Source: Candidatus Limnocylindrales bacterium (lineage in GTDB: Bacteria > Chloroflexota > Limnocylindria > Limnocylindrales > CSP1-4). From it: a DNA stretch of 64,000 nt. The notes under the pieces were generated by a model. It saw only the letters and a list, made by a program, of their open reading frames with translations. It made no database searches and was not told the DNA's origin. A program made the translations under genes and the position numbers. Of the stretch, positions 20,850-41,752 are shown piece after piece (position 1 is the first letter of the stretch; each line of letters opens with the position of its first letter). The stretch is taken from assembly GCA_049521175.1 (NCBI GenBank), contig JBEKPB010000001.1, positions 92,440 through 156,439 of the forward strand, given 5' to 3'.

Positions 20850-22282
20850 GAGACGCCACCTCCCGTCCAGGCGGTCTCGGACACGGGCTCTCTCGCGGCT
20901 GCATCCGCATCGACCGGTGGCAGAGCCGCGGCGATGTCGTGGCGCCGCTGCACGCCGGACCAGGCGATGAGGTCTGCCGCCGCCTCGGCGCAAGCTCGCG
21001 CCGCGGGAATAGTGGCCCCCAACCCGACCACTGCCAGAACGCGGCCCCCGTTGGTGCGGAACCCGCCTCCGACGTCTCTGACCGTACCCGCATGAAAGAC
21101 AGTGGCTCCAGCCGCTGCTGCTTCCTCGAGGCCTGTGATGGCGTCGCCCTTGCGGGGGCTCTCCGGGTAGCCGGCGGCCGCAAGCACGATGGCCACGGCC
21201 GCGTCACCGGTGGTCGGCAGCAGCCCGCCGTTCAACCCCAGCTCCGCGGCGGCGGAGGCTAGATCCCCTTGGGCGGCGCCATAAAGGAGCGGCCCCAGCG
21301 GGACGGCGAGTCGAGGCAGGAGGGCCTGGATCTCCGGATCCCCGAACCGGGCGTTGCATTCGATCAAGACGGGGCCTTCCGGCGTGACCATCAGCCCGGC
21401 GTAGAGGGCGCCGCGGAACGGCGCGCCGCGCCGGGCCAGCTCGGCCAGGATCGGCAGGTGGATCACGTCGACGAGAGTGGCGCACAGGCTTTCCGGCAAA
21501 TCGGGCACGGGGCTGTAGGCGCCCATGCCGCCCGTGTTGGGACCCCGGTCGGCGTCGAGTAGTCGCTTGTGGTCGCGGGCGGGAGGCAGCGCCAGTGCCC
21601 CGTGGTCGTCGCACATGGCGATGAGGCTCGCCTCGGCTCCGTTCAGCCGCTCCTCGATCACGACGACGGGTTGGGCCGGGTCGCCCGAGGGCAGCGCCGC
21701 GAAGAGCGTCTTCAAGGCGGCCTCTGCGGCGGGGTAGTCGTCACACACGGTGACGCCCTTGCCGGACATCAGCCCATCTGCCTTGATCACGACACCGCGC
21801 GACGCAGGAGCCTCGGCGAGCAGCCTCGCAAACTCCATCGCCGGCTCGATGGCCACGAAGTCGCGGCCGCGGGCCATCCGCACGCCCGCAGCGGCGGCGA
21901 CGTCGCGACAGAAGGCCTTGCTCCATTCGATCCGGGCCGCGGCCCTGGTCGGCCCGAAGGTGGGCACGCCGGCATCTAGAAGGGCGTCGACGACACCCGC
22001 GGCGAGCGGCGCCTCGGGCCCGACGACGACCAGGTCGACATCCTCGCGGGTGGCGACGTCGACAACCGCGGCCGGATCAAGCGCCGACACCTCCGGGAAG
22101 CAGCGGACCTTCGACTCCTGGCCGATGGCGTCGCTCCCCGGGGCGACGATGACGGCCTCGACCGCAGCCTCGCGGCTGAGGCTCCAGACGAGGGCATGCT
22201 CCCGGCCGCCACCACCCAGCACGAGCAGGCGGGCGGGGCCGCTCACGGCGGCCCCTCCGCTCTTGCCCGCACGAGGAGTCAT
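20846..22282 (-). CDS. purD: Phosphoribosylamine-glycine ligase.
   Basis: The N-terminus is ARLLVLGGGGREHALVWSL, and the protein has an ATP-grasp core. The ATG at 22282 overlaps the purA stop (ATGA). The 921-aa track ORF is extended by an alternative frame over purA. Confidence 0.85.
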   Translation of the reverse strand: MTPRAGKSGGAAVSGPARLLVLGGGGREHALVWSLSREAAVEAVIVAPGSDAIGQESKVRCFPEVSALDPAAVVDVATREDVDLVVVGPEAPLAAGVVDALLDAGVPTFGPTRAAARIEWSKAFCRDVAAAAGVRMARGRDFVAIEPAMEFARLLAEAPASRGVVIKADGLMSGKGVTVCDDYPAAEAALKTLFAALPSGDPAQPVVVIEERLNGAEASLIAMCDDHGALALPPARDHKRLLDADRGPNTGGMGAYSPVPDLPESLCATLVDVIHLPILAELARRGAPFRGALYAGLMVTPEGPVLIECNARFGDPEIQALLPRLAVPLGPLLYGAAQGDLASAAAELGLNGGLLPTTGDAAVAIVLAAAGYPESPRKGDAITGLEEAAAAGATVFHAGTVRDVGGGFRTNGGRVLAVVGLGATIPAARACAEAAADLIAWSGVQRRHDIAAALPPVDADAAAREPVSETAWTGGGVS

Positions 22283-23640
22283 CGATTCGCCGATGCTGGG
22301 GGCGGCGCGGCCGCCGGACCCGAACCACCCGGAACGACGACGGGCGGCTTCGGCCGCTGCGGGCGGGGCATCCGCTCGATCGTCTGGCTCCGTTCCGGCC
22401 CCACGGAGACGAAGCAGATCGGAGCGCCGGAAAGGCGCTCGACCGCGTCGACGTACAGCCTGGCGTTCTCCGGCAGGTCGCTCATCGCGCGGCAGTCGTG
22501 CAGCGGCTCGGTCCAGCCGGGGAAGTGCTCGTAGATCGGTTTCGCCCTGGCCAGAACGTCCGCGTCCGACGGCCACCAGTCGACCCGCTGGCCGTCGACT
22601 TCGTAGGCCATGCAGATCAAGACTTCCTCGAGGCCGGACAGGATGTCGATCTTGTTGAGCATGATCGAGCTGACGCTGTTGACCGCGACCGCATAGCGCA
22701 ACGGAACGGCATCGAACCACCCGACGCGGCGCCGCCGGCCGGTCGTGGTTCCGAACTCCCGGCCGCGATCGATGATCCCCTCGCCGATCTCTTCGGTCAG
22801 CTCCGTCGGGAACGGACCGGCCCCGACGCGGGTGGCGTACGCCTTCATGACGCCGATCACTTCGTCGACCTGGAGCGGCCCGATCCCGCCGCCGGTGCAT
22901 GCCCCGCCGGCTATCGGGTTGGACGAGGTCACGAACGGATAGCTGCCGTGGTCGAGATCGAGCAGCGTGCCCTGGGCGCCCTCGAAGAGAAGGTGATCGC
23001 CCCGCGCAAGCATCCCCTGGACCAGCTGCGTCGTGTCGGCGAGATGTGGCTCGAGCCGGCGTCCCCATCCGGTCGCCAGCGTCACGAGCTCGTCGAGGTC
23101 GAAGCCGTCGACGCGATGCTGGCGCTGGAGCGTGGCATTCTTCTCGGGCAGGATCCGCGCGAGCTTGCTGCGCAGCGCCGGACCGTCGAGCAGATCCTCC
23201 ATTCGGATGCCGATGCGCCAGGCCCGGTCGGCGTACGCGGGGCCGATGCCGCGCCGCGTCGTCCCCACCGCCGCCTTGGCGAGTCGAGCCTCCATTGCCC
23301 CGTCGAGGGCGATGTGGTACGGCATGATCACATGGGCGTGCTTGCTGACACGGACCCGTTCCACCTCGATGCCGCGGCTGGCGAGCATGTCCAGTTCGGC
23401 AATCAGGGTCGCTGGATTGACAACGACGCCGTTGCCGATGATCGGCGCGATGTGCGGGTAGAGCACACCCGAGGGGACGAGGTGGAGCTTGAAGACCTCC
23501 TCGCCCAGCATGATCGTGTGACCGGCGTTGTCGCCGCCCTGGTATCGGACCACGGCCGTGACGTTCTCGGCCAGCGCGTCCGTGGTCTTGCCTTTGCCCT
23601 CGTCGCCCCACTGCAGGCCGACGATCACGGTGGCGGGCAT
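22279..23640 (-). CDS. purA: Adenylosuccinate synthetase.
   Basis: MPATVIVGLQWGDEGKGKTTD is the P-loop. The protein contains GGDNAGHT. It has a Pro-rich tail of about 25 aa at the C-terminus. GGAGGA lies 4 nt upstream of the ATG. Confidence 0.9.
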   Translation of the reverse strand: MPATVIVGLQWGDEGKGKTTDALAENVTAVVRYQGGDNAGHTIMLGEEVFKLHLVPSGVLYPHIAPIIGNGVVVNPATLIAELDMLASRGIEVERVRVSKHAHVIMPYHIALDGAMEARLAKAAVGTTRRGIGPAYADRAWRIGIRMEDLLDGPALRSKLARILPEKNATLQRQHRVDGFDLDELVTLATGWGRRLEPHLADTTQLVQGMLARGDHLLFEGAQGTLLDLDHGSYPFVTSSNPIAGGACTGGGIGPLQVDEVIGVMKAYATRVGAGPFPTELTEEIGEGIIDRGREFGTTTGRRRRVGWFDAVPLRYAVAVNSVSSIMLNKIDILSGLEEVLICMAYEVDGQRVDWWPSDADVLARAKPIYEHFPGWTEPLHDCRAMSDLPENARLYVDAVERLSGAPICFVSVGPERSQTIERMPRPQRPKPPVVVPGGSGPAAAPPPASANR

Positions 23641-23973
23641 CTAGTCCTCCCCCCGGTGCTCGCCCGGCGGTCGTCCATCTGGTAACCCCGGGAAACCAAA
23701 AGGCCCTCGGCCGACCGGCCGGGGACCTGGGTAGACTGCCCCTCCGTTGGAGCCGCGGCTCCTGAGGGAGCGAAGGTGGTGGTTCGTCTCACGGGGCGAA
23801 CAGCACGCCTTCCTGGGGCAACGTGGCCTCCTTGGCGATGTTGTCTCTGGAACCCGATGGCGCCTCGGCCTTGGGCAGTCCGGAGTATAGCAGGCGGGAG
23901 ACCCTCAACCGAAGCCCCGGACGCGAGCGGCGCAGAATCGAGCGGCCCGCGAAACGCCTGCCGAGGAGAGCTA

Positions 23974-24759
23974 CTACTCCCCCGCCGAAGGCGCCGCAGC
24001 GGCCGGGCTACCGGCGAGGGCGGCTCGCACGGCCTCGGGGCCGCGAGCCCGCCACTCCGCCGCGATGGCGGCCGTAGCCGTCGCCCCGACCCGGCATGCA
24101 CCGGAGGCGAGCATCGCCAGCATTGCATCGAGGGTTCGAACTCCGTGCGCGGCCTTGACGCCCACACTGTCGCCGACGACGCGCCGCATCAATGCGATCT
24201 CGCCCGGCTCCGCTCCACGCGGCGAGAAGCCGGTTCCGTTCTTCACGAACGCCGCTCGGGCCTCGACGGCCACGCGACATCCGGCTTCCACCTGCTCCGG
24301 GGTCAGATACGCGGTCTCGAGGATCACCTTGACCGGGGTTGGTGAGACGGTGTAGATGAGCCCCGCCAGCTCGTCTCGGACGTAACCCAGCTCGCCTGCC
24401 CGCAGCGCCCCGATGTTCACCACGACGTCGAGCTCGACTGCACCCTGATCGACAGCCAGGATGGCCTCGCGCTCCTTGATCGCGGACACGTTGGCGCCGT
24501 GCGGGAAACCGACCACGGTGGTGGGCCCGACCACCGACCGCCGGAGCCGACCGACGACGAATTGCAGGTCGGCCGGCCGGCAGCATACCGTGGCCGTCTC
24601 ATATTCGATCGCCAGGTCGCAACCGGCCTCGACGTCGGCTCGTGTGAGATCGGGTCTGAGCAGGGAGTGGTCTATGGTGCCCATCAGGGTCTTCTCGTCG
24701 AGCATCATGAGGTCCAGCGGCGCACGATTCCCGAGCCGCACCTTGAGGACTTGCTTCAT
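23974..24759 (-). CDS. Divergent deoxyribose-phosphate aldolase (DERA/DeoC family) paralog with no encapsulation peptide. It is the last gene of the BMC operon.
   Basis: The protein contains IDHSLLRPD, GFPHGAN, the Schiff-base Lys context VKVILET, FVKNGTGF and VGVKAAHGVRT. The canonical VCVNP, FVKTSTG and VKASGGIRT motifs are altered. Confidence 0.7.
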   Translation of the reverse strand: MKQVLKVRLGNRAPLDLMMLDEKTLMGTIDHSLLRPDLTRADVEAGCDLAIEYETATVCCRPADLQFVVGRLRRSVVGPTTVVGFPHGANVSAIKEREAILAVDQGAVELDVVVNIGALRAGELGYVRDELAGLIYTVSPTPVKVILETAYLTPEQVEAGCRVAVEARAAFVKNGTGFSPRGAEPGEIALMRRVVGDSVGVKAAHGVRTLDAMLAMLASGACRVGATATAAIAAEWRARGPEAVRAALAGSPAAAAPSAGE

Positions 24760-24767
24760 CCGTGCTC

Positions 24768-25853
24768 CTAGGACGCCGAGGCCACGATTGCCAGCGCGTG
24801 GCTGCCGCCAGCATCGATGGCGATCACGTTCGAGAGATGCGCCGGAAGGGTCGCCTGGCCGGATTCGTTGCCGCCCCAGACTACAACGGTTCCGTCAGCC
24901 TTGAGAGCCAGGCTGAAGTTGCCGCCGGCCGCGATGGCGACCGCGTGCAGGCCCGGCGGCACGGTCGTCTCGCCGTCGTTGTTGCCGCCCCAGGAGACAA
25001 CCGTCCCGTCCGACTTGAGGACGAGGTTGTGGGCGAAGCCGGCCGAGATCGCCGTCACCCCGCTCAGGCCGGCCGGAACCTTGACCACGCCGGAGGCGAC
25101 ATCGGTCGGGTATTTGTCCCCCCAGGCGACCACGGTTCCATCGCTCAGCAGGGCCAGGCTGAAGTCGTAGCCGGCCGAGACCTGAACTACGTTCTTGAGG
25201 CCGGTCGGCACGTCGGTCGCGCCGTTCGAGTCGTCGCCCCAGGCAACGACGGTTCCGTCGGACTTGAGGGCGATCGCATGCGAACCCGCGGCGCCGATTC
25301 CGACTACGTTGCTCAAGCTGGCCGGCGGGGTTGACTCGCTATCGGAGTTGTCGCCCCAGCCGACGACGGTGCCGTCGACCTTCAGGGCCAGGCCGAAGTT
25401 GCTACCCGCCGAGATCGCCCGGACATTGGTTGCGGAGACGGGTATCTGCGTCTCCGCCGGGTCGTTGGCGCCGCCCCATGCGGTGACGGTCCCATCAGAC
25501 TTGAGGGCCATACTGAAGTCGTCGCCCGCGGCAACGGCGACGACGCCGGTGAGTCCGGGTGCAACGTCGGTCTCGCCCGAGCTGTCGTCGCCCCAGGCCA
25601 CGACGGTCCCGCTCTGTACGGGCGCTGACGAAGCCATGCCGGACGGCCGCGCGCTCGGGGTCGTTCCCGCCGGAATTGACGGCGCGACGGTTCCGCGCGA
25701 GCCCGGAGGTCCGGAGCCAGCCGCTGGCGACGCGGCAGTGGACGGGGTCGGCGTGGTGCCGGCGAGCCCGCTGCAGGCCGCGACCGTGATTGCCAGGGCG
25801 CCCGTAAGGATGAAACCGCCAAGCCCGCAGAGGGCTTGTCTCCTCGTAGCCAT
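24768..25853 (-). CDS. RCC1-repeat (seven-bladed beta-propeller) protein with a Tat signal and a lipobox.
   Basis: MATRRQALCGLGGFILTGALAITVAACSG contains an RR motif and a lipobox Cys. The protein has seven repeats of about 50 aa of the form GTVVAWGDDSxGxTDVPxGLxxVVxVSAGxxFSLAL. The gene is 8 bp downstream of the next gene in the operon. Confidence 0.7.
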   Translation of the reverse strand: MATRRQALCGLGGFILTGALAITVAACSGLAGTTPTPSTAASPAAGSGPPGSRGTVAPSIPAGTTPSARPSGMASSAPVQSGTVVAWGDDSSGETDVAPGLTGVVAVAAGDDFSMALKSDGTVTAWGGANDPAETQIPVSATNVRAISAGSNFGLALKVDGTVVGWGDNSDSESTPPASLSNVVGIGAAGSHAIALKSDGTVVAWGDDSNGATDVPTGLKNVVQVSAGYDFSLALLSDGTVVAWGDKYPTDVASGVVKVPAGLSGVTAISAGFAHNLVLKSDGTVVSWGGNNDGETTVPPGLHAVAIAAGGNFSLALKADGTVVVWGGNESGQATLPAHLSNVIAIDAGGSHALAIVASAS

Positions 25854-25968
25854 CTGACCTCCTCATGGGACGCTGGCACCGCCCCCGACGACGACGCCAC
25901 CGGCAGCATAGCGCGCGAGCCTACCCAGGTGGCCGCAGCGGCCTGCAACTGTCCCACGGCGGCTCCGA

Positions 25969-26250
25969 CTAGACCGCCGCCGGCCCCTCCACGACGGCGT
26001 CCACAATCCCGACGACCAGCGTCCGGATCGGGGCGCCCGGCGCGTTCAATACCTGGCGGGCCGAGTTGCCCTCGTCGAGGATCAGGACCGTCTCTCCGGC
26101 GCCGGCACCAACGGTGTCAACCGCGATGAGATAGCCGCCGGCCGGGCGACCGGACGGGTCGAGGAGGTCGCACAGCAGGAGCGTCCGATTGTCGAAGTCG
26201 GGCGCGTTGATCGTGGAGACGACCGTGCCCACGACGCGGCCCAGCTTCAT
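25969..26250 (-). CDS. BMC vertex protein (BMC-P, EutN/CcmL/PduN family), copy 1.
   Basis: The sequence MKLGRVVGTVVSTINAPDFDNRTLLLCDLLDP...IAVDTVGAGAGETVLILDEGNSARQ is EutN-like. The start is at M125 of the track ORF, giving an ATGA overlap with the upstream gene. Confidence 0.8.
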   Translation of the reverse strand: MKLGRVVGTVVSTINAPDFDNRTLLLCDLLDPSGRPAGGYLIAVDTVGAGAGETVLILDEGNSARQVLNAPGAPIRTLVVGIVDAVVEGPAAV

Positions 26251-26531
26251 TGCTCGTTCCCCGCGAGCGCGGAGACCGCGTCCACGATCCCTACGATCGC
26301 GTGGTCCACCGGGACGAATGGGTCCGGCATCGCCTGGGCGGCCTCGCGGGCAGCCACGAAATAAACGAGCTCGCCGGGACCGGCCATGTGGACCGCGTCG
26401 GCCGCGACCAGCTGGCCACCGGTCGGTTTGAGCGACCGATCGAGCGGCTGGATCACGAGGAGCTTGACGCCCTCGAGTCCGGGCGCCTTGACGGTGGCGA
26501 CGACCGTGCCGATAACCCGTGCGAGCTGCAT
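26247..26531 (-). CDS. BMC vertex protein (BMC-P), copy 2.
   Basis: The sequence is MQLARVIGTVVATVKAPGLEGVKLLVIQPLD...VAADAVHMAGPGELVYF. Confidence 0.8.
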   Translation of the reverse strand: MQLARVIGTVVATVKAPGLEGVKLLVIQPLDRSLKPTGGQLVAADAVHMAGPGELVYFVAAREAAQAMPDPFVPVDHAIVGIVDAVSALAGNEQ

Positions 26532-26536
26532 GCCGG

Positions 26537-27199
26537 CTACCGGCCCTTCCGCCGTGGAGCGGGCGCCGAGGCTCGGGCCCGCGCCGCAGCGGTACCGGTG
26601 CCCGCGCCCCGGACCCGCTCACGGAACTGCCCGTCCGCCGCCAGGTTCACGGCCATCTCCGAATGCAGCTGCGGAATCACTCGCGACGCCAGGCCCGGCG
26701 CCCCGACGATTCGGCCGGCGCCGATCTCGACCGCGGCCTCAACCTCGCTGACGGGTCCGTCGAACAAGAGGTAGGCCTTGCCGCCGAGGTCGTCGGCCAG
26801 GCGCAGCTCGACGAGACGGACCCGCGCGCCCTTGAGCCCGGCGTCGGCGGCCTCGATGATCGCGGCGACGGTGGCGGTCTCGATGACGCCGAGGGCCTCG
26901 CCCGCGGCCTCTCGGCACGAGCCGCCGATAGCGGCGATCAACTCCGGGTGGGCATTCGGCAGGAAGACGACGTCGACGATGGCCGACGCGCCGGCCTCGC
27001 GGCCCGCCGCCAACGACTCTTCGACGTCTCCGACCGTGCCTCCGATGAGAACCAGGTACTTCCCGGGGTGCACCGTGCCGGCCCGCAGGACATCGATTGG
27101 GGCGCGCTTCGCCATGGCGTCGCCGGCGGCGATGCCGGCCGCGATCGAGTCGAGCTCGATAAGTGCGAGGGCCGGTTCGATGCCGAGGCTGGTTGTCAT
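26537..27199 (-). CDS. Tandem-domain BMC shell protein (BMC-T, PduT-like, two canonical PF00936-type domains).
   Basis: Domain 1 is IEPALALIELDSIAAGIAAGDAMAKRAPIDVL. Domain 2 is EALGVIETATVAAIIEAADAGLKGARVRLVELRL...GGKAYLLFDGPVSEVEAAVEIG. Confidence 0.75.
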   Translation of the reverse strand: MTTSLGIEPALALIELDSIAAGIAAGDAMAKRAPIDVLRAGTVHPGKYLVLIGGTVGDVEESLAAGREAGASAIVDVVFLPNAHPELIAAIGGSCREAAGEALGVIETATVAAIIEAADAGLKGARVRLVELRLADDLGGKAYLLFDGPVSEVEAAVEIGAGRIVGAPGLASRVIPQLHSEMAVNLAADGQFRERVRGAGTGTAAARARASAPAPRRKGR

Positions 27200-27201
27200 C
27201 G

Positions 27202-28665
27202 TCAGACGATCCGCAGCGCGCCGACGACGGTGATCCGCCGCTCGCGCGAGAAAGTCCGCGGCCGGGTCAAGCCATCGCCGGACGGGCTGGCGATCGAGAA
27301 CGAGGTGAAGCCCTCACCGCCCTCGCCCAGGCCCGCGAAGTTGGGCCCGTTGGTCACGAAGATGCTGCAGTTCATGGCGCGGGCCATCCTTGTGATGGTG
27401 TCGACGTTTGTGGAGTGGATGGACGCCGTGTGGCGGAAACCGTGCTCGGCGCGCACCGCCAGATCGATCGCCTGCTCGACGGTCCCGACCCGCACGACCG
27501 GGAGGAGCGGCATCATCTGCTCGGTCCAGACCAGGCTGTGGTCGCGCGGCACGTCCGCAATCAGGAGTCGCGGCGTCGGCTCGACCTGGACGCCGATCTC
27601 AGCCAGCATCCTGGCAGCGTCCTGGCCGATCCAGGCCGGGTTCATGACGCCTGGCTTCCCGGGCTGGCCGAGCTCCCTGAAGACAACTCGCTCGAGCCGG
27701 CGTAGCTCGTGCTCCTTCAGCAGGTAGGCGCCGTTCTGGGTCATAGACCGGATCAGCCGGTCGGCGACGGTATCCACGACGAGCACGAGCTTCTCGTCGA
27801 TGCAGACGATGTTGTTGTCGAACGAGGCGCCGCGGACTATGTCGCGGCCCGCTCGCTCTATGTCGGCGGTTCCGTCGACGACCGCGGGCGGGTTGCCGGG
27901 ACCGGCAGTGATCGCTCGCTTGTCGGACTTGAGCGCCTCGCGGACGACCGCCGGCCCGCCCGTCACGAGCAGCACGCGGACACTGGGGTGCAACATCAAG
28001 GCGCGTGCGGTTTCGATCGTCGGGTTCGCGGCGGCCGACACGAGGTTTGGCGGCCCTCCGGCACCGACGACGGCCCGGTTGATGAGCCGCACCGTTTCCG
28101 CCGAGCATCGCCGCGCGCTCGGGTGGGCGTTGAAGACGACGGCGTTGCCGGCCGAGACGATGCTGATCGTGTTGTTGATGATCGTCGAGGTGGGGTTCGT
28201 GACCGGCGTGATGGCCGCCACGACGCCGAACGGGGCGAACTCGGTGACCATCATCCCCGCATCGCCCGTGACGGCCTGGACCTCGAGGTCCTCTGGCCCT
28301 GGCGCCTTGGAGGCCACCAGGCGGTTCTTGACGACCTTGTCCTCGACGCGCCCGAGGTGCGTTTCCTGGTGGGCCATGCGGGCCAGCTGCTCCGAGTGGT
28401 CGAGCATCGAGCGACGCACGGCGTCGATGATGACCTTGCGGCCGGCCAGGCCCTGCACCTGGAACTCACCGAACGCTCGCGTGGCTGCGGCAACGGCATC
28501 GTCGATCGTGGCGTGGATGCCGTCGCCCAGCTCCGCGGCCGCGGCGGTCGCCAGCTCGGCCTCGGCTCGCAGCCCTTCGCCGGGCCGCGCGTCACCGGCC
28601 GTCGCCACGCGGCGGCGGACGCGCTCGATGATCTCGGTGATTTCGCGTTCGTCGAGCTCGCTCAT
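27202..28665 (-). CDS. CoA-acylating aldehyde dehydrogenase (PduP/EutE-like) with an N-terminal encapsulation-peptide-like helix.
   Basis: The aldehyde dehydrogenase core contains ITPVTNPTSTIINNTISIVSAGNAVVFNAHP and a catalytic Cys in DNNIVCIDEK. The N-terminus MSELDEREITEIIERVRRRVATAG is amphipathic. Confidence 0.85.
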   Translation of the reverse strand: MSELDEREITEIIERVRRRVATAGDARPGEGLRAEAELATAAAAELGDGIHATIDDAVAAATRAFGEFQVQGLAGRKVIIDAVRRSMLDHSEQLARMAHQETHLGRVEDKVVKNRLVASKAPGPEDLEVQAVTGDAGMMVTEFAPFGVVAAITPVTNPTSTIINNTISIVSAGNAVVFNAHPSARRCSAETVRLINRAVVGAGGPPNLVSAAANPTIETARALMLHPSVRVLLVTGGPAVVREALKSDKRAITAGPGNPPAVVDGTADIERAGRDIVRGASFDNNIVCIDEKLVLVVDTVADRLIRSMTQNGAYLLKEHELRRLERVVFRELGQPGKPGVMNPAWIGQDAARMLAEIGVQVEPTPRLLIADVPRDHSLVWTEQMMPLLPVVRVGTVEQAIDLAVRAEHGFRHTASIHSTNVDTITRMARAMNCSIFVTNGPNFAGLGEGGEGFTSFSIASPSGDGLTRPRTFSRERRITVVGALRIV

Positions 28666-28677
28666 CGTGTTCGCCCG

Positions 28678-29336: not shown

Positions 29337-29391
29337 CGACCTTGTCTCCTTCTCGTTCGGCTGCTCGACCTTCCGGTCGATGCCGTTGCTG

Positions 29392-34136: not shown

Positions 34137-34146
34137 ATGCCTCCCC

Positions 34147-34182: not shown

Positions 34183-34245
34183 CCCACCTTAGACGATGCT
34201 CGCGGGCGGGTGGCACGACCCCGCGCCGGATGCAGCCGTTGCGGA

Positions 34246-35112
34246 CTAGGCCTGAACCAGGCCGCCGACAAACCGCGTCAGAACGCGGGCCAGCGCGGGG
34301 CCGGCCGCCTCGGCCGCGGCAAGCACCTCGGCGTGGCTCAGCTCCGAGCCCGACAACCCGGCGCCCGGATTCGTCACGAGCGAGACGCCGCAGACGCGCG
34401 AACCCGCCCAGTGTGCAGCCACGGCCTCGAGCGCGGTGGACATCCCGACCGCATCGACACCCAGGCGGTCCACCATGCGTACTTCTGCCGGAGTCTCGTA
34501 GCTGGGCCCGAGAAGGCACGCGTACACGCCGTCTGCCAGCGCCACCCCCTCTGCATCGGCCGCGGCGTGCAGACGCGATCTCAGATCAGCGTCCCAGACG
34601 CCGGTCATGTCCGGGAAGCGCGGCCCGATCTCCGGCGCGTTCGGACCGGTGAGGGGTGAACGCCCAGTGAGATTGATGTGGTCGGCAATCGCCATCAGGG
34701 TGCCGGCGGCGTAGGTCCGGTTGACGCCGCCCGCCGCGTTTGTGAGCACGACGGACTCGACGCCCAGCAGCGCCATCAGTAGCACCGGCTGGACCACGAA
34801 CCCCGCCGAATGGCCTTCGTACAGATGGAAGCGACCCTGCTGGACGACGACCGGGGCCCCGGCAAGGCGCCCGAAAAGGAGCCTACCGGCGTGCCCAGGT
34901 GCCGTGGCCGCGGGCCAACCGGGCAACTCGGCGAATGGAATGGCGACGTCGAGGTCGATGGAGTCGGCCAGCCCGCCAAGACCTGAACCGAGCACCAGGC
35001 CTGCGAGCGGCCTGAGGTTCGTCCGCTCACGGACGGCCCGCTCCAGCAAAGCCAGCAGCGGAGGCTGTTCGGCCGGCGATATCTCACGCCCGAGGACGAA
35101 ATCCGCGGTCAT
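34246..35112 (-). CDS. punA: Purine nucleoside phosphorylase (trimeric PNP/MTAP family).
   Basis: The protein contains GLVLGSGLGGLAD, HLYEGH and VGMSTALEAVAAHWAG. The ATG at 35112 overlaps the cdd stop. Confidence 0.8.
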   Translation of the reverse strand: MTADFVLGREISPAEQPPLLALLERAVRERTNLRPLAGLVLGSGLGGLADSIDLDVAIPFAELPGWPAATAPGHAGRLLFGRLAGAPVVVQQGRFHLYEGHSAGFVVQPVLLMALLGVESVVLTNAAGGVNRTYAAGTLMAIADHINLTGRSPLTGPNAPEIGPRFPDMTGVWDADLRSRLHAAADAEGVALADGVYACLLGPSYETPAEVRMVDRLGVDAVGMSTALEAVAAHWAGSRVCGVSLVTNPGAGLSGSELSHAEVLAAAEAAGPALARVLTRFVGGLVQA

Positions 35113-35600
35113 CGACCGCGGCCACCGGACGCCGACCCGCTCGCCGCAGCCTCGTCCAGGTTCTTCGCCCAGAAGGCGAGCGGCAGCAGGTCGCCCAGCC
35201 GGGCGGCGTAGACGGAGTCGCTCAGACTGGAGGCGGCGAACACGAGGAGGTCCGGGCCGAATTCGGCGAGGAGCTGGCGGCAGATCCCGCACGGACTCGA
35301 CGGCTCGGCGGTCGGGGTGACCACCACGCAGACCCGGACCGACGTCTCGCCACCGACAACCGCCCCAACGACGGCGCTCCGCTCGGCGCAGATCGTGGCC
35401 CCGTACGAGGCCGACTCGACGTTGCATCCGGGATAGATCGCGCCGCTGCCCCCGAGGATCGCCGCACCCACATGGAACCGCGAGTACGGCACCCGGGCGC
35501 GGCCCTGGGCCGCGAGGGCGGCAGCAAGCAGATCGTCGAACTCACGCAATCGCGTCGAGGCTTCCGCCCGGTCGATGAGCTCTATCCCGGCAACCGTCAT
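35109..35600 (-). CDS. cdd: Cytidine deaminase.
   Basis: The zinc motifs CAERSA and PCGICRQ are present. The protein is 163 aa, from MTVAGIELIDRAEA. Confidence 0.85.
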   Translation of the reverse strand: MTVAGIELIDRAEASTRLREFDDLLAAALAAQGRARVPYSRFHVGAAILGGSGAIYPGCNVESASYGATICAERSAVVGAVVGGETSVRVCVVVTPTAEPSSPCGICRQLLAEFGPDLLVFAASSLSDSVYAARLGDLLPLAFWAKNLDEAAASGSASGGRGR

Positions 35601-35690
35601 CGAAGACACCTCACTGAGCAATTGCCTTTCCCCCAGTAGTGATAGCGTCTGCGCCAACCACCGATCACCGCCGGCGAGGAGAGGACACCG

Positions 35691-36563
35691 ATGGACACCA
35701 GCGGCCCTGACGAGTCTCGAGCTGGGGCGGCCGAGCGCCGTGCCGACGCCCCAACCAGCGAGACTGGGGCACAGTATCACCTGCATCTCTCCCCGGGCCA
35801 GATCCCGGCGACCGTGCTCATGCCCGGGGACCCCGGCCGCGTCACCAAGATGATGGCCGGCTGGGATGGCGGCGAGGAGCTCGCCTTCCACCGCGAGTAC
35901 CGATCGGCTCGAGGGATCTACAAGGGCGTCCCGATCGGCGCGATATCGAGCGGTGTCGGAGCGCCCAGTCTCGAGATCGCCGCCCACGAGTTCGCGACGA
36001 TCGGCGGCAAGACGGTCATCCGCGTGGGGACGTGCGGAGCCCTTCGCGCCGAGATCCAGCCCGGCGACCTGATCGTGCCCGTCGCCGCGGTCCGGCGCGA
36101 CGGCACGGCCGACCGGTACTTGCCACTCGACCACCCGGCCTTCGCCGAACCCGAGGTGTACATGGCCCTGGTCGAGGCGTGCGAGCGGCTCGGGTATCGC
36201 TACCACGTCGGCATCGTGTGCAGCGTCGGCTCTTTCTACCTCGGGCAGGCACGTCCGGTGACCGGCGGTTTCTGGCAGTCGGGTGTCGATGGCCTGGTCG
36301 ACGACCTGCGCGAGGCCGGTGTCGGATGCCTTGAAATGGAGTGCTCGGCGCTGTTCGTCCTGGCCCGGCTGTTCGGGATGCGAAGTGGCGCCGTCCTCGG
36401 CGCCGTCGCGAACCGGGTCACCAACGCCTTCGGCGACAACGGCGCTGAGGAGCGGGCGATCTCGGTCGCCAACGAAGCCGTGGTCATCCTCGACGACTGG
36501 GGCCGGCGCAAGGCTTCCGCCGGCAAGGCGAACTTCTACCCGTCTCTGTTGCGGGGCGTTTGA
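35691..36563 (+). CDS. Nucleoside phosphorylase of the PNP/UDP family 1 (uridine phosphorylase or DeoD-type).
   Basis: The protein contains GVPIGAISSGVGAPSLEIAAHEF, GTCGAL and EMECSALFVLARLFG. It is transcribed divergently from cdd. Confidence 0.75.
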   Translation: MDTSGPDESRAGAAERRADAPTSETGAQYHLHLSPGQIPATVLMPGDPGRVTKMMAGWDGGEELAFHREYRSARGIYKGVPIGAISSGVGAPSLEIAAHEFATIGGKTVIRVGTCGALRAEIQPGDLIVPVAAVRRDGTADRYLPLDHPAFAEPEVYMALVEACERLGYRYHVGIVCSVGSFYLGQARPVTGGFWQSGVDGLVDDLREAGVGCLEMECSALFVLARLFGMRSGAVLGAVANRVTNAFGDNGAEERAISVANEAVVILDDWGRRKASAGKANFYPSLLRGV

Positions 36564-36644
36564 GCCCGACACATCGGTCTACGGCTCGGCCACGGATCAG
36601 TCTACGGCGCGGCCGCAACGATCGATCGCGGAGCCGGATGCACT

Positions 36645-37724
36645 TTAGGTCGCCGATTCGCGCTCGTACGGCTTGCCGTCCGCAGCCGGGGCGATGCTCC
36701 GTCCGATCAGGCCCGCCAGAATGACGATCGTGATGATGTAGGGCAACGCCTCCCAGAACTCGCCCGGGACCTGGCTCATCAAGTCGCCCAGGTCGCCCGT
36801 TGGGGGCGAGATCTGCAGCGACGTGCTCAGCCCCGTGGCCGACGCGAAGATCAGGGCCGCCCCGAAAGCCCCGAAGGGCGTCCACCGGCCCACGATCATC
36901 GCCGCGAGCCCAATGAACCCGCGTCCGGCCGTCATGTTGGCGTCGAACTTGTTGGTGTGCTCCATGGTCAGCCAGGCGCCGCCCAGCGCCGCCAGCGCTC
37001 CGGACATGACAACATTCCGATACCGCAGTCGGATGACGTCGATGCCGACCGTCTCGGCGGCTCGCGGATGCTCACCGGTGGCGCGCGTTCGGAGGCCCCA
37101 GCGAGATCGGAACAACATGATCTGCAGGATGATCACGATCACGATCGTCGTTAGCCCGATCGGCCCCTGACTCAGGACGGCGTTGATCAGCCAGCCGACC
37201 ACCGGCAGATCGACCACTCCCTGCGGGACCTGGTACGCGGCAAACTGGCCGGCGCCGACGGGCGACTGCGATGCGATGAGGCTGTAGACATAGCCGGTGA
37301 TCCCCGCAGCGCCGATGTTGATGATCGTGCCGCTGATGATCTGGTCCACCCGGAGCGATATGGCCATCCAGGCGTGCAGCAGGGAAACGAGCATTCCGGC
37401 CGCGATGGCCGCCACCAGGCCGACCAGGAGGGGCATTGTCACGCCGAACAAGGGCATGGGCGTACCCTCGCCCATGACCCCGACCGCGGCGGCACCGACG
37501 ATCCAGCCGACGAACGCTGCCGTCAGCATGATCCCTTCCAGACCGATGTTGACGACACCCGACCGCTCGCACATGACTCCGCACAACGCCGCCAGCGTGA
37601 TCGGAATCGCAACGGCGACCGTGGTCTGGGACATGTAGCCGATGTTCTCGAGCACGTATCCGAGGAACTGGAAAACGATCCCCAGGGCTGGCAGGGCATC
37701 GAGGCTCTGGATGATCCCGCTCAT
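36645..37724 (-). CDS. ABC transporter permease (BMP-family nucleoside importer, NupQ/YufQ-like).
   Basis: This is a polytopic permease encoded adjacent to a BMP-family substrate-binding protein and a tandem ATPase. Confidence 0.75.
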   Translation of the reverse strand: MSGIIQSLDALPALGIVFQFLGYVLENIGYMSQTTVAVAIPITLAALCGVMCERSGVVNIGLEGIMLTAAFVGWIVGAAAVGVMGEGTPMPLFGVTMPLLVGLVAAIAAGMLVSLLHAWMAISLRVDQIISGTIINIGAAGITGYVYSLIASQSPVGAGQFAAYQVPQGVVDLPVVGWLINAVLSQGPIGLTTIVIVIILQIMLFRSRWGLRTRATGEHPRAAETVGIDVIRLRYRNVVMSGALAALGGAWLTMEHTNKFDANMTAGRGFIGLAAMIVGRWTPFGAFGAALIFASATGLSTSLQISPPTGDLGDLMSQVPGEFWEALPYIITIVILAGLIGRSIAPAADGKPYERESAT

Positions 37725-38899
37725 ACCACGCCCTCCGCTTCCCGACCCACTGCGACCCCCATGTCGGACATGGACCCCGGTTTGGCGGCCCTACGATCCA
37801 ACCAGCGCCTCAGAGCGTTCACAACCAGGAAGACCAGAATGATCGCCTGGAGTGCGTCGACCAACTGGGATGGAACGCCGGCCTGGATCTGCATCGCCTG
37901 CGAGCCGGCCCGCATCGCCCCCAGGAGGAGGCCCGCGAACATGACGCCGAATGGGTTGGACCGTCCGAGCAATGCCACGGTGATGGCGTCGAAGCCGACG
38001 GTTGTGTCGTAGCCGGGCGCGATCTGATGGACGACGCCCATGAGGGTCGTCGCTCCGGCCAACCCGGCCATCAGGCCCGCGATCGACATCGTCAGGACGA
38101 TCAGTCGATTGGTCTTCATGCCGCCGTAGCGGGCCGCGTCGGGGTTGGCGCCGGCCGCCCGGATCTCGAACCCGAGCGTCGTCCTGTAGAGCAGGAACCA
38201 GATGATCGGAACCGCGGCCAGGGCGATCAAGATACCGAGGTGGCCGTCGCGCCCGAGGATGATCGGGAGGGCGGCGTTCGTGGTGGTTACGTCGGCCGAG
38301 ATGGGCTGGTGCGCATTTGGGAGGGCGAGCGGTCCGCTAATCGCCCAGTAGGTCGCGAAGACGAAGACGTAGTTGAGCATGATCGTGGTCACGACTTCGT
38401 GGGCCCCCGACGTGGCCTTGAGGGCACCCGGGATGAACCCGGCCGCGGCGCCGAACGCCGCACCTACCAGAAGGGCCAGCGGGACGGTTATGTACGAACT
38501 CTGGTTCGCACCGACGACCGTAGCAACCAGCAACGCTCCGACGGTACCCATCAGGAACTGGCCGCGCCCGCCGATGTTGAACAACCCCGCCTTGAAGCCG
38601 AGCCCCACGCCCAGGCCCGCCAGTATCAACGGCGTGGCGTAGTTCAGCGTGGACGTTAGACCGTTGGGAGTAGCCACACCCTGTAGCAATGCCAGATACG
38701 CCGCGATCGGGAGCCCAACGTCGAAGTTCGAATGGCCGGCCACGAGACCGCTGAAGAGGGTAATTCCCACGGCTCCAACCAGGAGCGCCAGAACGATGGC
38801 GACCAGCGGCTCGGCGATCGGCTGGGCCATTGCGGAAATGGCTTTGGCGATCGCCTTCGGAAGGCCCGCCCTCGGCTGGATCGTCGCGGGACCGCTCAC
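37721..38899 (-). CDS. ABC transporter permease (NupP/YufP-like).
   Basis: This is a polytopic permease. Its start overlaps the ATPase stop. Confidence 0.75.
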   Translation of the reverse strand: MSGPATIQPRAGLPKAIAKAISAMAQPIAEPLVAIVLALLVGAVGITLFSGLVAGHSNFDVGLPIAAYLALLQGVATPNGLTSTLNYATPLILAGLGVGLGFKAGLFNIGGRGQFLMGTVGALLVATVVGANQSSYITVPLALLVGAAFGAAAGFIPGALKATSGAHEVVTTIMLNYVFVFATYWAISGPLALPNAHQPISADVTTTNAALPIILGRDGHLGILIALAAVPIIWFLLYRTTLGFEIRAAGANPDAARYGGMKTNRLIVLTMSIAGLMAGLAGATTLMGVVHQIAPGYDTTVGFDAITVALLGRSNPFGVMFAGLLLGAMRAGSQAMQIQAGVPSQLVDALQAIILVFLVVNALRRWLDRRAAKPGSMSDMGVAVGREAEGVV

Positions 38900-40464
38900 G
38901 CCAGCGCCTCCTTCTTGGTGGCCGCCCCTTCGTGGCCTCCCGTGGCCATCAGGAGGCCTACTTCGCTCTTGTCCGCGGTCCGCCCGTCCAGCTCAGCCAC
39001 CATCCGGCCGCGGTACATGACGGTAATCCGGTCGGACATCTCCATGATCTCGTCCAACTCGGCCGATACGAGCAAGACGGCGGTACCGGCGTCCCGCTTG
39101 GCGATGATCTGGCGGTGGATGAACTCGATGCTGCCGACGTCCAGACCACGGGTGGGCTGGTCAAGGACCAGCAGCTTCACGTCCCGGTCGAACTCACGCG
39201 CCACGACAACCTTCTGCTGGTTGCCGCCGGAAAGCGTCGACGTCGAAACCCTGGCGGATGGAGTCCGGATGTCGAAGCGCTCGACCTGCGCGGACGCGGA
39301 CTCGAGGATTGCCGAGTCGTTTCGCAGAGGGCCGTTGGCGAACGGCGGTCGGTAGTAGCTGGTAAGAACCAGGTTGTCATACAGCGGGAACGCGAGAATC
39401 AGGCCGAACCGATGACGATCGCCCGGGACGTAGCCCACCCCGGCCTCGTTCATGCGCCGGGGCGACAAGCCGGTCACGTCCCGACCGGCCAGCATCACCT
39501 TGCCGCCGAGAGGCCGCCGCAACCCCACCAGGGCCTGAACCAACTCATCCTGGCCGTTCCCGGCTACGCCGGCGACACCCAGGATCTCACCGGCCTTGAT
39601 CTCAAACGTAGCGCCGGGCACTACCTCGTGATGGCGATCGTCGGCTACTCGCAACCCCTCAACGCGCAGCACCGCTCCGCCGGCATGCGACTCGCCCCGG
39701 TCGACGGTCAACTCCACTTCGCGGCCGACCATCAGCTCGGCGAGCTCTTCCTCCGTGGTTTCGCCCGGTCGCCTCTCGCCTATCACGCGTCCACGCCGGA
39801 TGACGGTGATCCTGTCAGCAACCTCGAGGACTTCGTACAGCTTGTGGCTGATGAAGACGATCGAGTGGCCGTCGCTCGCCAGGCGGCGAAGCAGGCCGAA
39901 GATCTCCTCCGTTTCACCTGGCGTCAGGACCGCGGTCGGCTCGTCCAGGACGAGGATCCTGGCGTCGCGATACAGCGCTTTGAGGATCTCGACTCGCTGC
40001 TGCTGTCCAACCGACAGGGAGCCCACTCTCGCGTCCGGATCGAGGTCGAAGCCGAAGCGTGAGGCCAGGGTGGCGATCCGCTTGCTGGCCTCGTGACGAT
40101 CCACGAACAGAGGGTTCGACATAGTCTCGTCGCCGAGAATCACGTTCTCGGCGACGGTGAGCACCGGCACCAGCATGAAATGCTGGTGGACCATGCTGAT
40201 TCCGCGGGCGATGGCATCGGAAGGGCCGGCGATCTGGATCTGCTCACCGTCGAGCAGAATCGTGCCTTCGTCCGGTCGGGCCAGGCCGTACAGAACGTTC
40301 ATCAAGGTGGTCTTGCCCGCGCCGTTCTCACCAAGGAGGGCATGGATCTCGCCGCGGCAGACGTCGAGGTCTATGTGGTCGTTGGCCACGACGCCCGGAT
40401 ATCGCTTCGTGATCCCCCGCATCTCGAGGGCAGGGGCGCTGTCGCGTTCGGCATGCTCGGTCAT
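38896..40464 (-). CDS. ABC transporter ATP-binding protein with tandem duplicated ATPase domains (NupO/RbsA-like).
   Basis: There are two Walker A sites (GENGAGKTTL, and a second in the C-terminal half), an LSGGNQQKV signature, and 522 aa. Confidence 0.85.
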   Translation of the reverse strand: MTEHAERDSAPALEMRGITKRYPGVVANDHIDLDVCRGEIHALLGENGAGKTTLMNVLYGLARPDEGTILLDGEQIQIAGPSDAIARGISMVHQHFMLVPVLTVAENVILGDETMSNPLFVDRHEASKRIATLASRFGFDLDPDARVGSLSVGQQQRVEILKALYRDARILVLDEPTAVLTPGETEEIFGLLRRLASDGHSIVFISHKLYEVLEVADRITVIRRGRVIGERRPGETTEEELAELMVGREVELTVDRGESHAGGAVLRVEGLRVADDRHHEVVPGATFEIKAGEILGVAGVAGNGQDELVQALVGLRRPLGGKVMLAGRDVTGLSPRRMNEAGVGYVPGDRHRFGLILAFPLYDNLVLTSYYRPPFANGPLRNDSAILESASAQVERFDIRTPSARVSTSTLSGGNQQKVVVAREFDRDVKLLVLDQPTRGLDVGSIEFIHRQIIAKRDAGTAVLLVSAELDEIMEMSDRITVMYRGRMVAELDGRTADKSEVGLLMATGGHEGAATKKEALA

Positions 40465-40564
40465 GATTTCCTCGATCGGCCCCTGGCCGGCCGGATGCGG
40501 CGAGCGGGCCGCGCCATGATGGCGCGACCCGCTCGGGATGACTATTTGCCTGCCTGAGTCTCGG

Positions 40565-41752
40565 CTACTTGCTGGACCAGGTTCCGCACTTGGCAGGGCA
40601 CGTTGTCAGGGTGCCGGCCTTCATCGCGGCGAAGGCGGCGTCCAGCTTGCCCTGAACGTCGGCGGGAAGAGTGACGCTGGTGTTGTGGAAGGGTGAGTAA
40701 CCGATGCCGTCATTGGCAGCGTTGAACTTCGAGATGCCGCCCTTGGCGGTTCCGCCGGCGATCGCGGTGATCGTCTGATTTACTGCGCTGGAGAGATGCT
40801 TCTCGGCCGAGGTGACGATGCATTTGTCGGCGGTCGGGTAGGACAGGTACTCGTCGACGTCCACGCCGATGGCGAGGATACCGGCGGTGCAAGAGGCATC
40901 GAGGGCCGCGTTACCGGTGCCACCCGCGACCGGGAAGAGCACGTCAACGACCGCCTGCTTGATGAACTGGGACCCGAAGGTCTGGCCCCACGCCGGGTCG
41001 GCGTAGGCCTTGCCGAGGTCGCCGGTGGAGAAGAAGGTGCTCTTGACCTTGATGTTCGGGTTGTAGGACGCCGCACCCAACTGGAAGCCCTGCATGTAGC
41101 GGACGACCGCCGGGTTGTTGTTGATCCCGCCGATCTGGCCGATCGTGCCGCTCTTGCTTACGGCAGCGGCGACGATGCCGGCCAGGTAACCCGCCTGATC
41201 CTCCTGGAACTGGATCCCGATGAGCTTGGGCAGGAGGGTGGCAGCGTCGCCCTTGCACGTGAACGTGCTATCGGGGGCACCGGTCGCATCCACGCACGGA
41301 GCGACGTCAACCGCGATGAACCAGATGTTGGGGTTGGCCTTCGCGGCCTTGATCGTGGCATCACCCAGGTTGAAGCCGACCGTGACGATGATGTTGTACT
41401 GCTGATCGACGAACCCCTGGATGAGCCGGGTGTAGTCAGAGGCGTCGGCCGGAACGGCGTAGTGGACCGTGGCACCGAGGGCCGTCGCGGCCGCTTTCGC
41501 GCCTTCGTACGAGTACTGGTTGAAGTTCTTGTCGTTGATCGTTCCCACATCCGAGACCACGCCGATCTTGAGACCGGAGCTCGGCGCGGGCGTCGGCGCA
41601 GTGGTCGGCGCGGTGCTGGCCACGGCCGTCGTGGGCGCTGTCGTGGGCGCGGCAGTTGGCGCGGGCGTGGGCGTGGATCCCGAGCTCGAGCAAGCGGCCA
41701 CGATGACGGCCACCGCAAGCAGCGAGAACGCAGTCCGGAGCTTTCCGCTCAT
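40565..41752 (-). CDS. BMP-family (PnrA/Med-like) nucleoside-binding ABC substrate-binding lipoprotein.
   Basis: The protein has a signal peptide plus lipobox (LLAVAVIVAACSSS), a PT-rich linker, and the BMP core KIGVVSDVGTINDKNFNQ...IAVD. Confidence 0.85.
   Translation of the reverse strand: MSGKLRTAFSLLAVAVIVAACSSSGSTPTPAPTAAPTTAPTTAVASTAPTTAPTPAPSSGLKIGVVSDVGTINDKNFNQYSYEGAKAAATALGATVHYAVPADASDYTRLIQGFVDQQYNIIVTVGFNLGDATIKAAKANPNIWFIAVDVAPCVDATGAPDSTFTCKGDAATLLPKLIGIQFQEDQAGYLAGIVAAAVSKSGTIGQIGGINNNPAVVRYMQGFQLGAASYNPNIKVKSTFFSTGDLGKAYADPAWGQTFGSQFIKQAVVDVLFPVAGGTGNAALDASCTAGILAIGVDVDEYLSYPTADKCIVTSAEKHLSSAVNQTITAIAGGTAKGGISKFNAANDGIGYSPFHNTSVTLPADVQGKLDAAFAAMKAGTLTTCPAKCGTWSSK

Follow-up and report, generated by a model that had tools for sequence, protein, structure and literature searches.

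Sugar-phosphate-utilising (SPU) loci are among the most widespread types of microcompartment (BMC). How their natural substrate is supplied and how their cofactors are economised are questions raised by an SPU operon in a 64,000-nucleotide stretch (hereafter the window) of a Candidatus Limnocylindrales metagenome-assembled genome (Chloroflexota) from a peat metagenome. An earlier sequence-only reading had found this operon flanked by purine biosynthesis genes on one side and nucleoside salvage and transport genes on the other, had noted that phosphopentomutase (deoB), a phosphotransacylase (PTAC) and an alcohol dehydrogenase (AlcDH) are absent from the window, and had left the recycling of cofactors open. 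Its interpretation is partly supported by the present analysis and had largely been published already. The explanation that best accounts for the whole, which we consider moderately probable, is that an SPU3-type cassette sits in a nucleoside-catabolic neighbourhood and exchanges its cofactors with the cytosol through the shell protein BMC-Tdp. The locus is an ordinary member of SPU3, a subtype presumed to degrade deoxyribose-5-phosphate, and leaves the general picture of SPU compartments unchanged; what is new here is the polymorphism of the cassette among close relatives, the pairing of encapsulated and plain deoxyribose-phosphate aldolase (DERA) genes, and the recurrent linkage of SPU loci to nucleoside genes, all of them modest points.

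A microcompartment operon of the SPU3 type

Genes were called with a codon-usage model, all calls were scanned against Pfam, and names were checked against NCBIfam. The window has a G+C content of ~68% and carries nearly all of its coding sequence on the minus strand. The SPU operon is a tight, 11-gene unit at 32521-25969 (minus strand), bordered 5′ by nucleoside uptake and salvage genes and 3′ by a purine operon of ten genes; every gene listed by the sequence-only reading was recovered at its coordinates. Because the operon is read from the minus strand, the salvage genes described in that reading as downstream are in fact upstream, and its gene list had passed over the DeoR-like regulator, the SSB gene, a membrane-protein gene, the RCC1-repeat lipoprotein gene and a second DERA gene (DERA2). 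In the order of transcription, the operon encodes the DeoR-like regulator, an RpiB-like protein, DERA1, BMC-Tdp, BMC-H, BMC-P, an aldehyde dehydrogenase (AldDH), BMC-Ts and two further BMC-P proteins:

31526-32521, minus strand: SorC-family regulator nearest B. subtilis DeoR (PF04198; PDB 8R7Y, DeoR, E 9e-37; NF053881 205 bits, under the equivalog cutoff of 420)
30901-31533, minus strand: RpiB-like protein with an N-terminal encapsulation peptide (EP) of ~55 aa (PF02502 domain from residue 57)
30008-30904, minus strand: DERA1, the signature enzyme, with an N-terminal extension of ~77 aa (PF01791; TIGR00126 282 bits; domain from residue 78)
29392-30021, minus strand: BMC-Tdp, a CcmP-like double-stacking trimer with a gated pore, 209 aa (PF27545; CcmP 5LSR/4HT5)
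29028-29336, minus strand: BMC-H hexamer (PF00936, E 1.5e-29)
28678-28965, minus strand: BMC-P pentamer 1 (PF03319, E 5e-30)
27202-28665, minus strand: acylating AldDH with an N-terminal helix (NF011927 620 bits against a cutoff of 403; Pfam domain from residue 47)
26537-27199, minus strand: BMC-Ts with tandem BMC domains (PF00936 in two stretches)
26247-26531 and 25969-26250, minus strand: BMC-P pentamers 2 and 3, adjacent, with a 4-nt overlap (PF03319)

In the BMC catalog (Supplementary Data 2, PMC8217296), SPU3 loci are described as encoding AldDH, PF01791 and PF02502 proteins as their only enzymes, with the RpiB-like gene before the DERA gene and N-terminal EPs throughout, including that of AldDH. 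Their shell is said to comprise one BMC-H, a BMC-P triplet of which two genes are adjacent, a CcmP-like BMC-Tdp and a BMC-Ts devoid of the pore cysteine, and PduS is missing. The operon agrees with this description in the limits of its enzyme set, gene order, position of the EPs, BMC-P triplet, CcmP-like BMC-Tdp and cysteine-less BMC-Ts. BMC-Tdp matched the PDB entries of CcmP (5LSR/4HT5) with an E-value of 1.4e-86 and has kept the Glu-Arg gate (IER), and BMC-Ts reads HPGK where PduT-type proteins have CPGK. The N-terminal helix of AldDH, which lies before residue 47, reads EREITEIIERVRRRV; the whole protein is identical to NCBI MGA3029200.1, annotated as Ca. Limnocylindrales. Since the EP of SPU6 AldDH is C-terminal, this N-terminal position excludes SPU6. 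We assign the locus to SPU3 with high confidence, on the basis of the written subtype description rather than of shell-protein hidden Markov model clades. It shares with published SPU3 loci (Sutter et al. 2021 catalog; Dwyer, Sutter & Kerfeld 2024) the enzyme set, the RpiB-to-DERA order, the N-terminal EPs, the shell composition and the lack of PduS, PTAC and AlcDH, and Chloroflexi are among the hosts listed for the subtype. It differs in that the host belongs to the class Limnocylindria, in that the cassette lies within a nucleoside-salvage neighbourhood with a second, EP-less DERA gene, and in a four-cysteine motif in the DERA extension of which the searched text of these papers makes no mention.

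The experimentally studied DERA/RPI (ribose-5-phosphate isomerase) pair from the SPU6 BMC of Anaerolineae offers a biochemical point of comparison. As in SPU6, the DERA extension is ~70 aa long, the catalytic D/K/K residues are present (D164/K228/K257 of DERA1 align with E. coli D102/K167/K201), the catalytic cysteine of the RpiB-like partner is replaced by aspartate (motif ILDGAGIG), PTAC is missing and a BMC-Tdp is encoded. In SPU6, however, AldDH belongs to another branch of the family in addition to carrying its EP at the C-terminus, BMC-Tdp falls in the 'blue' clade rather than being CcmP-like, and a EutQ-like small protein is present. The SPU6 DERA cleaves deoxyribose-5-phosphate (dR5P), with a Km of 0.104 for which the available passage of the source gives no unit; its RPI partner has little or no isomerase activity, and the two proteins form a complex. 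The cysteine-to-aspartate substitution has been reported for all SPU RPIs.

These data bear on whether the compartment might instead process a ribose-5-phosphate-derived or rare pentose phosphate by way of the RpiB-like enzyme. In favour of such a substrate is the RpiB-like gene, which is found in 58 of the 82 loci compared below and encodes a protein whose role the literature leaves unexplained. Against it stand the loss of the catalytic cysteine and the poor activity of the SPU6 protein on the one hand, and on the other the retention of all catalytic residues in DERA1 and the cleavage of dR5P by its SPU6 homologue, and we regard this alternative to dR5P as very improbable.

A present-or-absent cassette in a neighbourhood with its own aldolase

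On the 5′ side of the operon, the order of transcription is Bmp-ABC importer, cdd-PNP and membrane-protein gene, with a udp-like gene and the SSB gene on the plus strand; on its 3′ side follow the RCC1-repeat gene, DERA2, a 334-nt spacer, and purA with the rest of the purine operon. The elements immediately surrounding the operon are:

33552-34136, plus strand: SSB gene between the salvage genes and the operon, part of the conserved neighbourhood and not of the system (PF00436, E 4.5e-34; same position in BMC-less relatives)
32793-33455, minus strand: 220-aa multi-pass membrane protein of the resident neighbourhood, upstream of the regulator (no Pfam match; kept in the BMC-less L094 and L098)
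25916-32713, minus strand: approximate extent of the SPU3 cassette, borders ±40 nt (junction mapping against L098 and L094)
24768-25853, minus strand: RCC1-repeat protein of the resident neighbourhood, not cargo (PF13540, E 4e-56; present in BMC-less relatives)
23974-24759, minus strand: DERA2, a second deoxyribose-phosphate aldolase devoid of an EP (TIGR00126 185 bits against a cutoff of 117)

Two sets of loci were compared with the window. The first consisted of 82 loci, namely 80 genome loci retrieved with an alignment of the DERA N-terminal region, spanning Chloroflexota, Actinomycetota, Acidobacteriota, Planctomycetota, Spirochaetota, Myxococcota and others, and two earlier loci; it was searched by tblastn with the window proteins and E. 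coli reference proteins, and a complete SPU-type shell set was present in 43 of its members. The second set comprised 17 further contigs of the window clade, found by a pattern scan of metagenomes with the spacer upstream of purA. Six of these 17 (L094, L098, L099, L100, L101 and L108) share the neighbourhood of the window and have no BMC genes, their order being [nup-ABC, udp, cdd, PNP], SSB, (membrane protein), RCC1 lipoprotein, DERA2, leader and purA. When the junctions were mapped, the BMC-less contigs were seen to differ from the window by the ~6.8 kb at about 25916-32713, corresponding exactly to the regulator and the ten BMC genes. A search for repeats revealed no terminal direct or inverted repeats at these borders, and no integrase was seen. 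In L009, the same block occupies another insertion point, between the RCC1 and DERA2 genes, and in the distant Limnocylindria L005 and L007 it stands in an unrelated MFS/MerR context. The operon thus appears to behave as a self-contained module that is present or absent among close relatives, and the existence of BMC-less relatives together with the shifted insertion points places it as a cassette inside an older nucleoside-catabolism neighbourhood.

DERA2 has no N-terminal extension and is 45% identical to DERA1, with the catalytic D/K/K residues retained; its sequence is identical to NCBI MGA3029195.1. The gene adjoins purA in the BMC-less relatives as well. DERA2 is thus best seen as the deoC that resides in a nucleoside-catabolic neighbourhood of conventional type, and its product is presumably cytosolic, so that encapsulated and plain versions of the aldolase step coexist at the locus. 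Sister populations that share this neighbourhood and differ in having or lacking the 6.8-kb cassette make up a natural pair; both keep the plain deoC, so that the contribution of encapsulation could be compared between them directly.

Two observations concern the surroundings of the cassette. The RCC1-repeat beta-propeller protein begins with a twin-arginine-like signal followed by a lipobox (TRRQAL...VAAC), is predicted to be an exported lipoprotein, and is duplicated in L097. In a second Limnocylindria clade (L005, L007, L012, L016 and L017), the operon is followed by two genes, neither of them found in the window, which in L005 encode a conserved protein of 152 aa, for which a weak Peptidase_M78/IrrE-like match was obtained (14993-15451), and a 256-aa membrane protein (15454-16224).

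Recurrent linkage of SPU loci to nucleoside genes

The salvage and transport genes upstream of the cassette are the following:

40565-41752, minus strand: Bmp/PnrA-family substrate-binding lipoprotein of a nucleoside-type ABC importer (PF02608, E 5e-42; PDB relatives include TmpC/PnrA, BmpD and BmpA)
38896-40464, minus strand: double-ABC ATPase of the importer, followed by the BPD_transp_2 permeases at 37721-38899 and 36645-37724, minus strand (neighbouring genes overlap by 4 nt)
35691-36563, plus strand: Udp-like nucleoside phosphorylase of the hexameric NP-I family, divergent from cdd (PF01048; TIGR01718 223 bits, below the cutoff of 280)
35109-35609, minus strand: cytidine deaminase gene cdd, overlapping the next gene by 4 nt (PF00383; NF004064 122 bits against a cutoff of 74)
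34246-35112, minus strand: trimeric-type purine nucleoside phosphorylase, PNP (NF006054 325 bits against a cutoff of 218)

The sequence-only reading had proposed that such genes supply (deoxy)ribose-1-phosphate from imported nucleosides, which is plausible from their content and gains weight from the DeoR-like regulator and from a link to SPU loci that recurs in at least five lineages. In five independent lineages, belonging to four phyla, SPU loci were found to have nucleoside phosphorylase or cdd genes as neighbours, which lie next to the operon on the same strand in three of these lineages. Besides the window clade, where salvage genes adjoin the SPU locus in L009 and L011, these are a second clade of Limnocylindria with a convergent pdp-PNP-cdd cluster (L005, L012, L014 and L015), the planctomycetotal L046, where two PNP-like genes, deoA and cdd follow the last BMC-P gene on the same strand, CSSED10-310 L060, in which deoA begins 18 nt after the DERA gene, and the Woeseiaceae L081 and L086, with deoD just upstream. 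A rough estimate, not computed, is that ~1% of random 20-kb windows would contain nucleoside genes of this kind; set against this expectation, the recurrence across lineages supports a functional link between nucleosides and SPU loci. It supports nucleoside-derived dR5P as the substrate of the compartment, and adds independent genomic support to the notion that nucleoside phosphorolysis feeds it.

The alternative that the cassette came to lie beside the salvage genes and purA by chance, its substrate supply being unrelated, has in its favour that the cassette is an indel, that the adjacency to purA is older than the cassette, and that no salvage genes are detectable near the BMC operons of L008, L007 and L017. 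It is at odds with the adjacency of phosphorylase or cdd genes in five independent lineages and four phyla, thrice on the same strand, with the two distinct insertion points, both beside the resident deoC, that the cassette occupies within one clade, and with the DeoR-like nature of the regulator. We consider coincidence improbable. The genome nearest to the window, L008 (DERA1 94% identical), possesses DERA2 and purA in addition to the BMC operon. The ~7 kb upstream of its SSB gene (L008 1-7000) yielded no homologue of the Bmp-ABC/udp/cdd/PNP cluster, and the position of the salvage cluster is thus itself variable.

The arrangement recalls the deo operons of other bacteria, B. subtilis dra-nupC-pdp with its DeoR and E. 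coli deoCABD, in which deoC is likewise clustered with nucleoside uptake and phosphorylase genes and a SorC-family, DeoR-like regulator. Here, in contrast, the transporter is a Bmp-ABC importer rather than NupC, no thymidine phosphorylase is encoded in the window, and the aldolase step is duplicated with one copy encapsulated. In B. subtilis, too, phosphopentomutase is encoded outside the dra-nupC-pdp cluster.

Enzymes for cofactor recycling and phosphopentomutase

Scanning all called genes of the 64-kb window against Pfam yielded no match to PduL (PF06130), Pta (PF01515; PTA_PTB), iron- or zinc-dependent alcohol dehydrogenases, PduS or phosphopentomutase. Six-frame tblastn searches of the window with E. 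coli DeoB, Pta, AckA, EutG and DeoA likewise returned nothing better than an E-value of 0.1 (DeoB, best E 0.13; Pta, best E 0.46; EutG, no match). The absence from the window of phosphopentomutase, PTAC and AlcDH noted in the sequence-only reading was thus borne out. It extends to the ~10 kb beyond each end, where that reading had allowed that deoB, pduL or adh might lie and where none of the missing genes was found; the flank on one side encodes UvrD, glycosyltransferases and GH130, and that on the other side gcvT/H/PA, NUDIX, aconitase and aldo-keto reductase. On a 373.7-kb contig of a peat metagenome, the window corresponds in reverse complement to roughly 217-281 kb. The search thus covered ~84 kb of the genome, within which the conversion of (deoxy)ribose-1-phosphate to the 5-phosphate is not encoded. 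Around the 82 DERA loci, the 43 with complete shells included, tblastn detected no homologue of DeoB, Pta, AckA or EutG at a distance of 10 kb or less. The lack of a local deoB is thus no anomaly, and the B. subtilis dra-nupC-pdp operon has no phosphopentomutase gene either. Clustering of the remaining open reading frames (ORFs) around the 43 complete loci disclosed no additional family of wide occurrence; the extras that recur (EamA transporter, wHTH and GntR regulators, alpha/beta hydrolase, class II aldolase and signal peptidase) are lineage-specific.

That PTAC and AlcDH are missing is a documented and subtype-specific trait. PTAC has been reported in almost all SPU1, SPU4 and SPU7 loci and AlcDH only in some SPU2, SPU4 and SPU6 loci (Dwyer, Sutter & Kerfeld 2024, PMC11585597). 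The description of this lack as a known oddity of SPU loci therefore holds for the SPU2/3/5/6 types, for which it is published, and not for SPU1, SPU4 and SPU7, which have PTAC. The exit of acetyl-CoA through BMC-Tdp is a published hypothesis: the PTAC-less subtypes typically carry a BMC-Tdp, whose pore is larger and by which acetyl-CoA 'could exit' (PMC11585597), and gated Tdp proteins may let large cofactors pass according to the BMC catalog (PMC8217296). Like the PDU and EUT metabolosomes, the SPU3 compartment has an aldehyde-generating signature enzyme, an encapsulated CoA-acylating AldDH, EPs and a shell of H, T and P proteins; unlike them, it comes with neither PTAC (PduL/EutD) nor alcohol dehydrogenase (PduQ/EutG), so that no luminal regeneration of NAD+ and CoA is encoded.

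Two other ways of regenerating the cofactors were considered. One is that PTAC/Pta, an alcohol dehydrogenase and possibly an NADH dehydrogenase are encoded elsewhere, perhaps as an EP-bearing satellite, and recycle cofactors in the lumen as in PDU and EUT compartments. BMC loci can indeed be split or have satellites according to the catalog, phosphopentomutase must be unlinked in any case, and the search covered only ~84 kb of the genome. The same catalog, however, gives satellites of SPU3 loci as uncommon and lists no PTAC or AlcDH for them (PMC8217296), the block from the DeoR-like regulator to the last BMC-P moves as a unit across contexts and phyla with its three enzymes only, and genes of this kind are missing from the 10 kb around all 43 complete loci. 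We judge this explanation unlikely, while taking it to be the most serious of the competing accounts. The other is the export of electrons by an iron-sulfur relay from MNdh (PduS) to BMC-Ts, proposed for SPU-like archaeal and bacterial loci with MNdh and a CPGK-type Ts; in a 2025 preprint on SPU-like archaeal compartments, NAD+ is regenerated by this relay and CoA by PTAC, while the substrate is supplied from nucleoside via deoxyribose-1-phosphate to dR5P. The window, in contrast, has no PduS- or MNdh-type domain and its BMC-Ts reads HPGK, with no pore cysteine, in agreement with the catalog description of SPU3 (PMC8217296); these features exclude the relay for this locus as far as it can be judged, leaving it a hardly credible explanation.

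A proposed route from nucleosides to acetyl-CoA

With neither PTAC, AlcDH, PduS nor MNdh in the cassette and with a cysteine-less BMC-Ts, exchange through BMC-Tdp is the only route for the cofactors that the cassette itself encodes. As judged from gene content, imported (deoxy)nucleosides would be deaminated and phosphorolysed to deoxyribose-1-phosphate, which a phosphopentomutase encoded elsewhere would convert to dR5P. The effector of B. subtilis DeoR is dR5P and, by similarity, the same compound may relieve repression by the DeoR-like regulator and induce the operon. In the lumen, DERA1 would cleave dR5P into glyceraldehyde-3-phosphate plus acetaldehyde, as suggested by its catalytic residues and by the activity of the SPU6 homologue, and the encapsulated AldDH would, given its family assignment, turn acetaldehyde, NAD+ and CoA into acetyl-CoA and NADH. 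In view of its cysteine-to-aspartate substitution and of the work on the SPU6 homologue, the RpiB-like protein most probably serves DERA1 as a packing partner and has no catalytic role. The CcmP-like BMC-Tdp, with its gated pore of ~14 Å, would let NAD+/NADH and CoA/acetyl-CoA exchange with the cytosol; what the compartment confines would be acetaldehyde and not a private pool of cofactors. Taken by itself, this predicted Tdp-mediated exchange is the best-supported proposal for the cofactors, with chances that we put at close to even.

Several points weigh against the proposed route. Co-localisation with nucleoside genes is recurrent but not universal: no salvage genes could be detected in the 10 kb around the operons of L008, L007 and L017. 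The passage of NAD(H) and CoA through BMC-Tdp is so far a proposal and not an experimental fact, and the view of metabolosomes as holding a 'private cofactor pool' argues for internal recycling. Only ~84 kb were inspected, and EP-bearing PTAC, ADH or mutase genes could sit elsewhere in the genome. The score of the regulator lies under the DeoR equivalog cutoff and, lastly, the four-cysteine motif of DERA1 is not explained by the proposed mechanism. The minimal, three-enzyme operon is well suited to a test of whether NAD(H) and CoA esters pass through BMC-Tdp.

A four-cysteine motif in the DERA1 extension

In the N-terminal extension of DERA1, an amphipathic helix and then a variable linker precede a C-x2-C-x3-C-x3-C motif at residues 39-50 (window 30754-30789, minus strand), placing the cysteines between the encapsulation helix and the aldolase barrel. 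The motif is kept in 119 of 120 close DERA1 homologues, with variation in the linker that precedes it, and was seen across L005-L066. Cysteine-rich variants with four to six cysteines occur in the SPU DERAs of many other phyla; some Acidimicrobiia have a three-cysteine CxxCxxxC form in which the fourth cysteine is replaced by serine, and others are devoid of the motif. In an AlphaFold2 model of DERA1, C42, C46 and C50 fall on one helix, but the confidence over residues 19-74 (predicted local distance difference test <50) is too low for the geometry to be judged. The motif may be a metal or Fe-S site, and the searched text of the SPU paper does not mention it. A doubtful though not implausible extension of the proposed mechanism is that SPU3 is a 'cofactor-open' metabolosome devoid of internal recycling, in which the four cysteines could couple assembly, gating or redox state to cofactor exchange. 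If true, it would contradict the rule of a 'private cofactor pool' for aldehyde-processing microcompartments.

The purine operon and its leader

The features on the 3′ side of DERA2 are:

23689-23894, minus strand: purA leader, ~205 nt (cross-genome conservation)
22279-23640, minus strand: purA, first gene of the purine operon (PF00709, E 3e-169)
10001-23640, minus strand: purine operon purA, D, B, C, S, Q, L, F, M and a purN-purH fusion (Pfam scans)

The purine operon, said earlier to end in purA, thus begins with that gene. In the first comparison set (82 loci), purA adjoins an SPU locus only in the closest relatives, L008 and L011. Since purA abuts the same DERA2 in BMC-less relatives, and more distant BMC-bearing relatives have no purA in the vicinity, its adjacency appears incidental, and the purine operon is best regarded as a neighbour of the older nucleoside cluster rather than of the BMC. 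The relationship between purine operon and BMC implied by the sequence-only reading did not hold up.

The purA leader was also found in L008 (17021-17226), L011 (17002-17205) and L093-L109. It is ~91% identical per column across 18 genomes, the flanking proteins being 50-96% identical, and is thus conserved far more strongly than the genes on either side; it contains a TATACT box (23884-23889), a terminal hairpin (23702-23727) and a U-run (23693-23701) that lies ~50 nt before the purA start codon. No Rfam family reached its gathering score anywhere in the window, and nothing meaningful was matched at E<=5 in the DERA2-purA spacer, of which the minimum free energy is not unusual (z-score -0.9). 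RNAalifold applied to the 18 leader copies returned no compensatory pairs because the copies are too alike. The leader is a candidate for a new riboswitch or attenuator of the purine operon. Two putative coding sequences in this region were rejected: a 10-codon leader ORF, as a conserved peptide, in view of its non-synonymous substitutions, and a 180-aa ORF at 23625-24167, which has no Pfam or NCBIfam match, was not called by the gene callers and overlaps the conserved leader.

Other features of the window

The last gene of the purine operon is the purN-purH fusion (10001-12268, minus strand), of which the 755-aa product combines the Formyl_trans_N, MGS and AICARFT_IMPCHase domains. An ORF at 32514-33530 on the plus strand was dismissed as a shadow ORF, and consensus scans for promoters and terminators over 22000-36800 gave nothing beyond the shuffled background. 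Beside the nucleoside importer, two consecutive Opp/Dpp-type ABC operons (44788-61569, minus strand) encode four family-5 solute-binding proteins (44788-46524, 50973-52718, 57428-59188 and 59776-61569), which suggests a heavy investment in peptide uptake.

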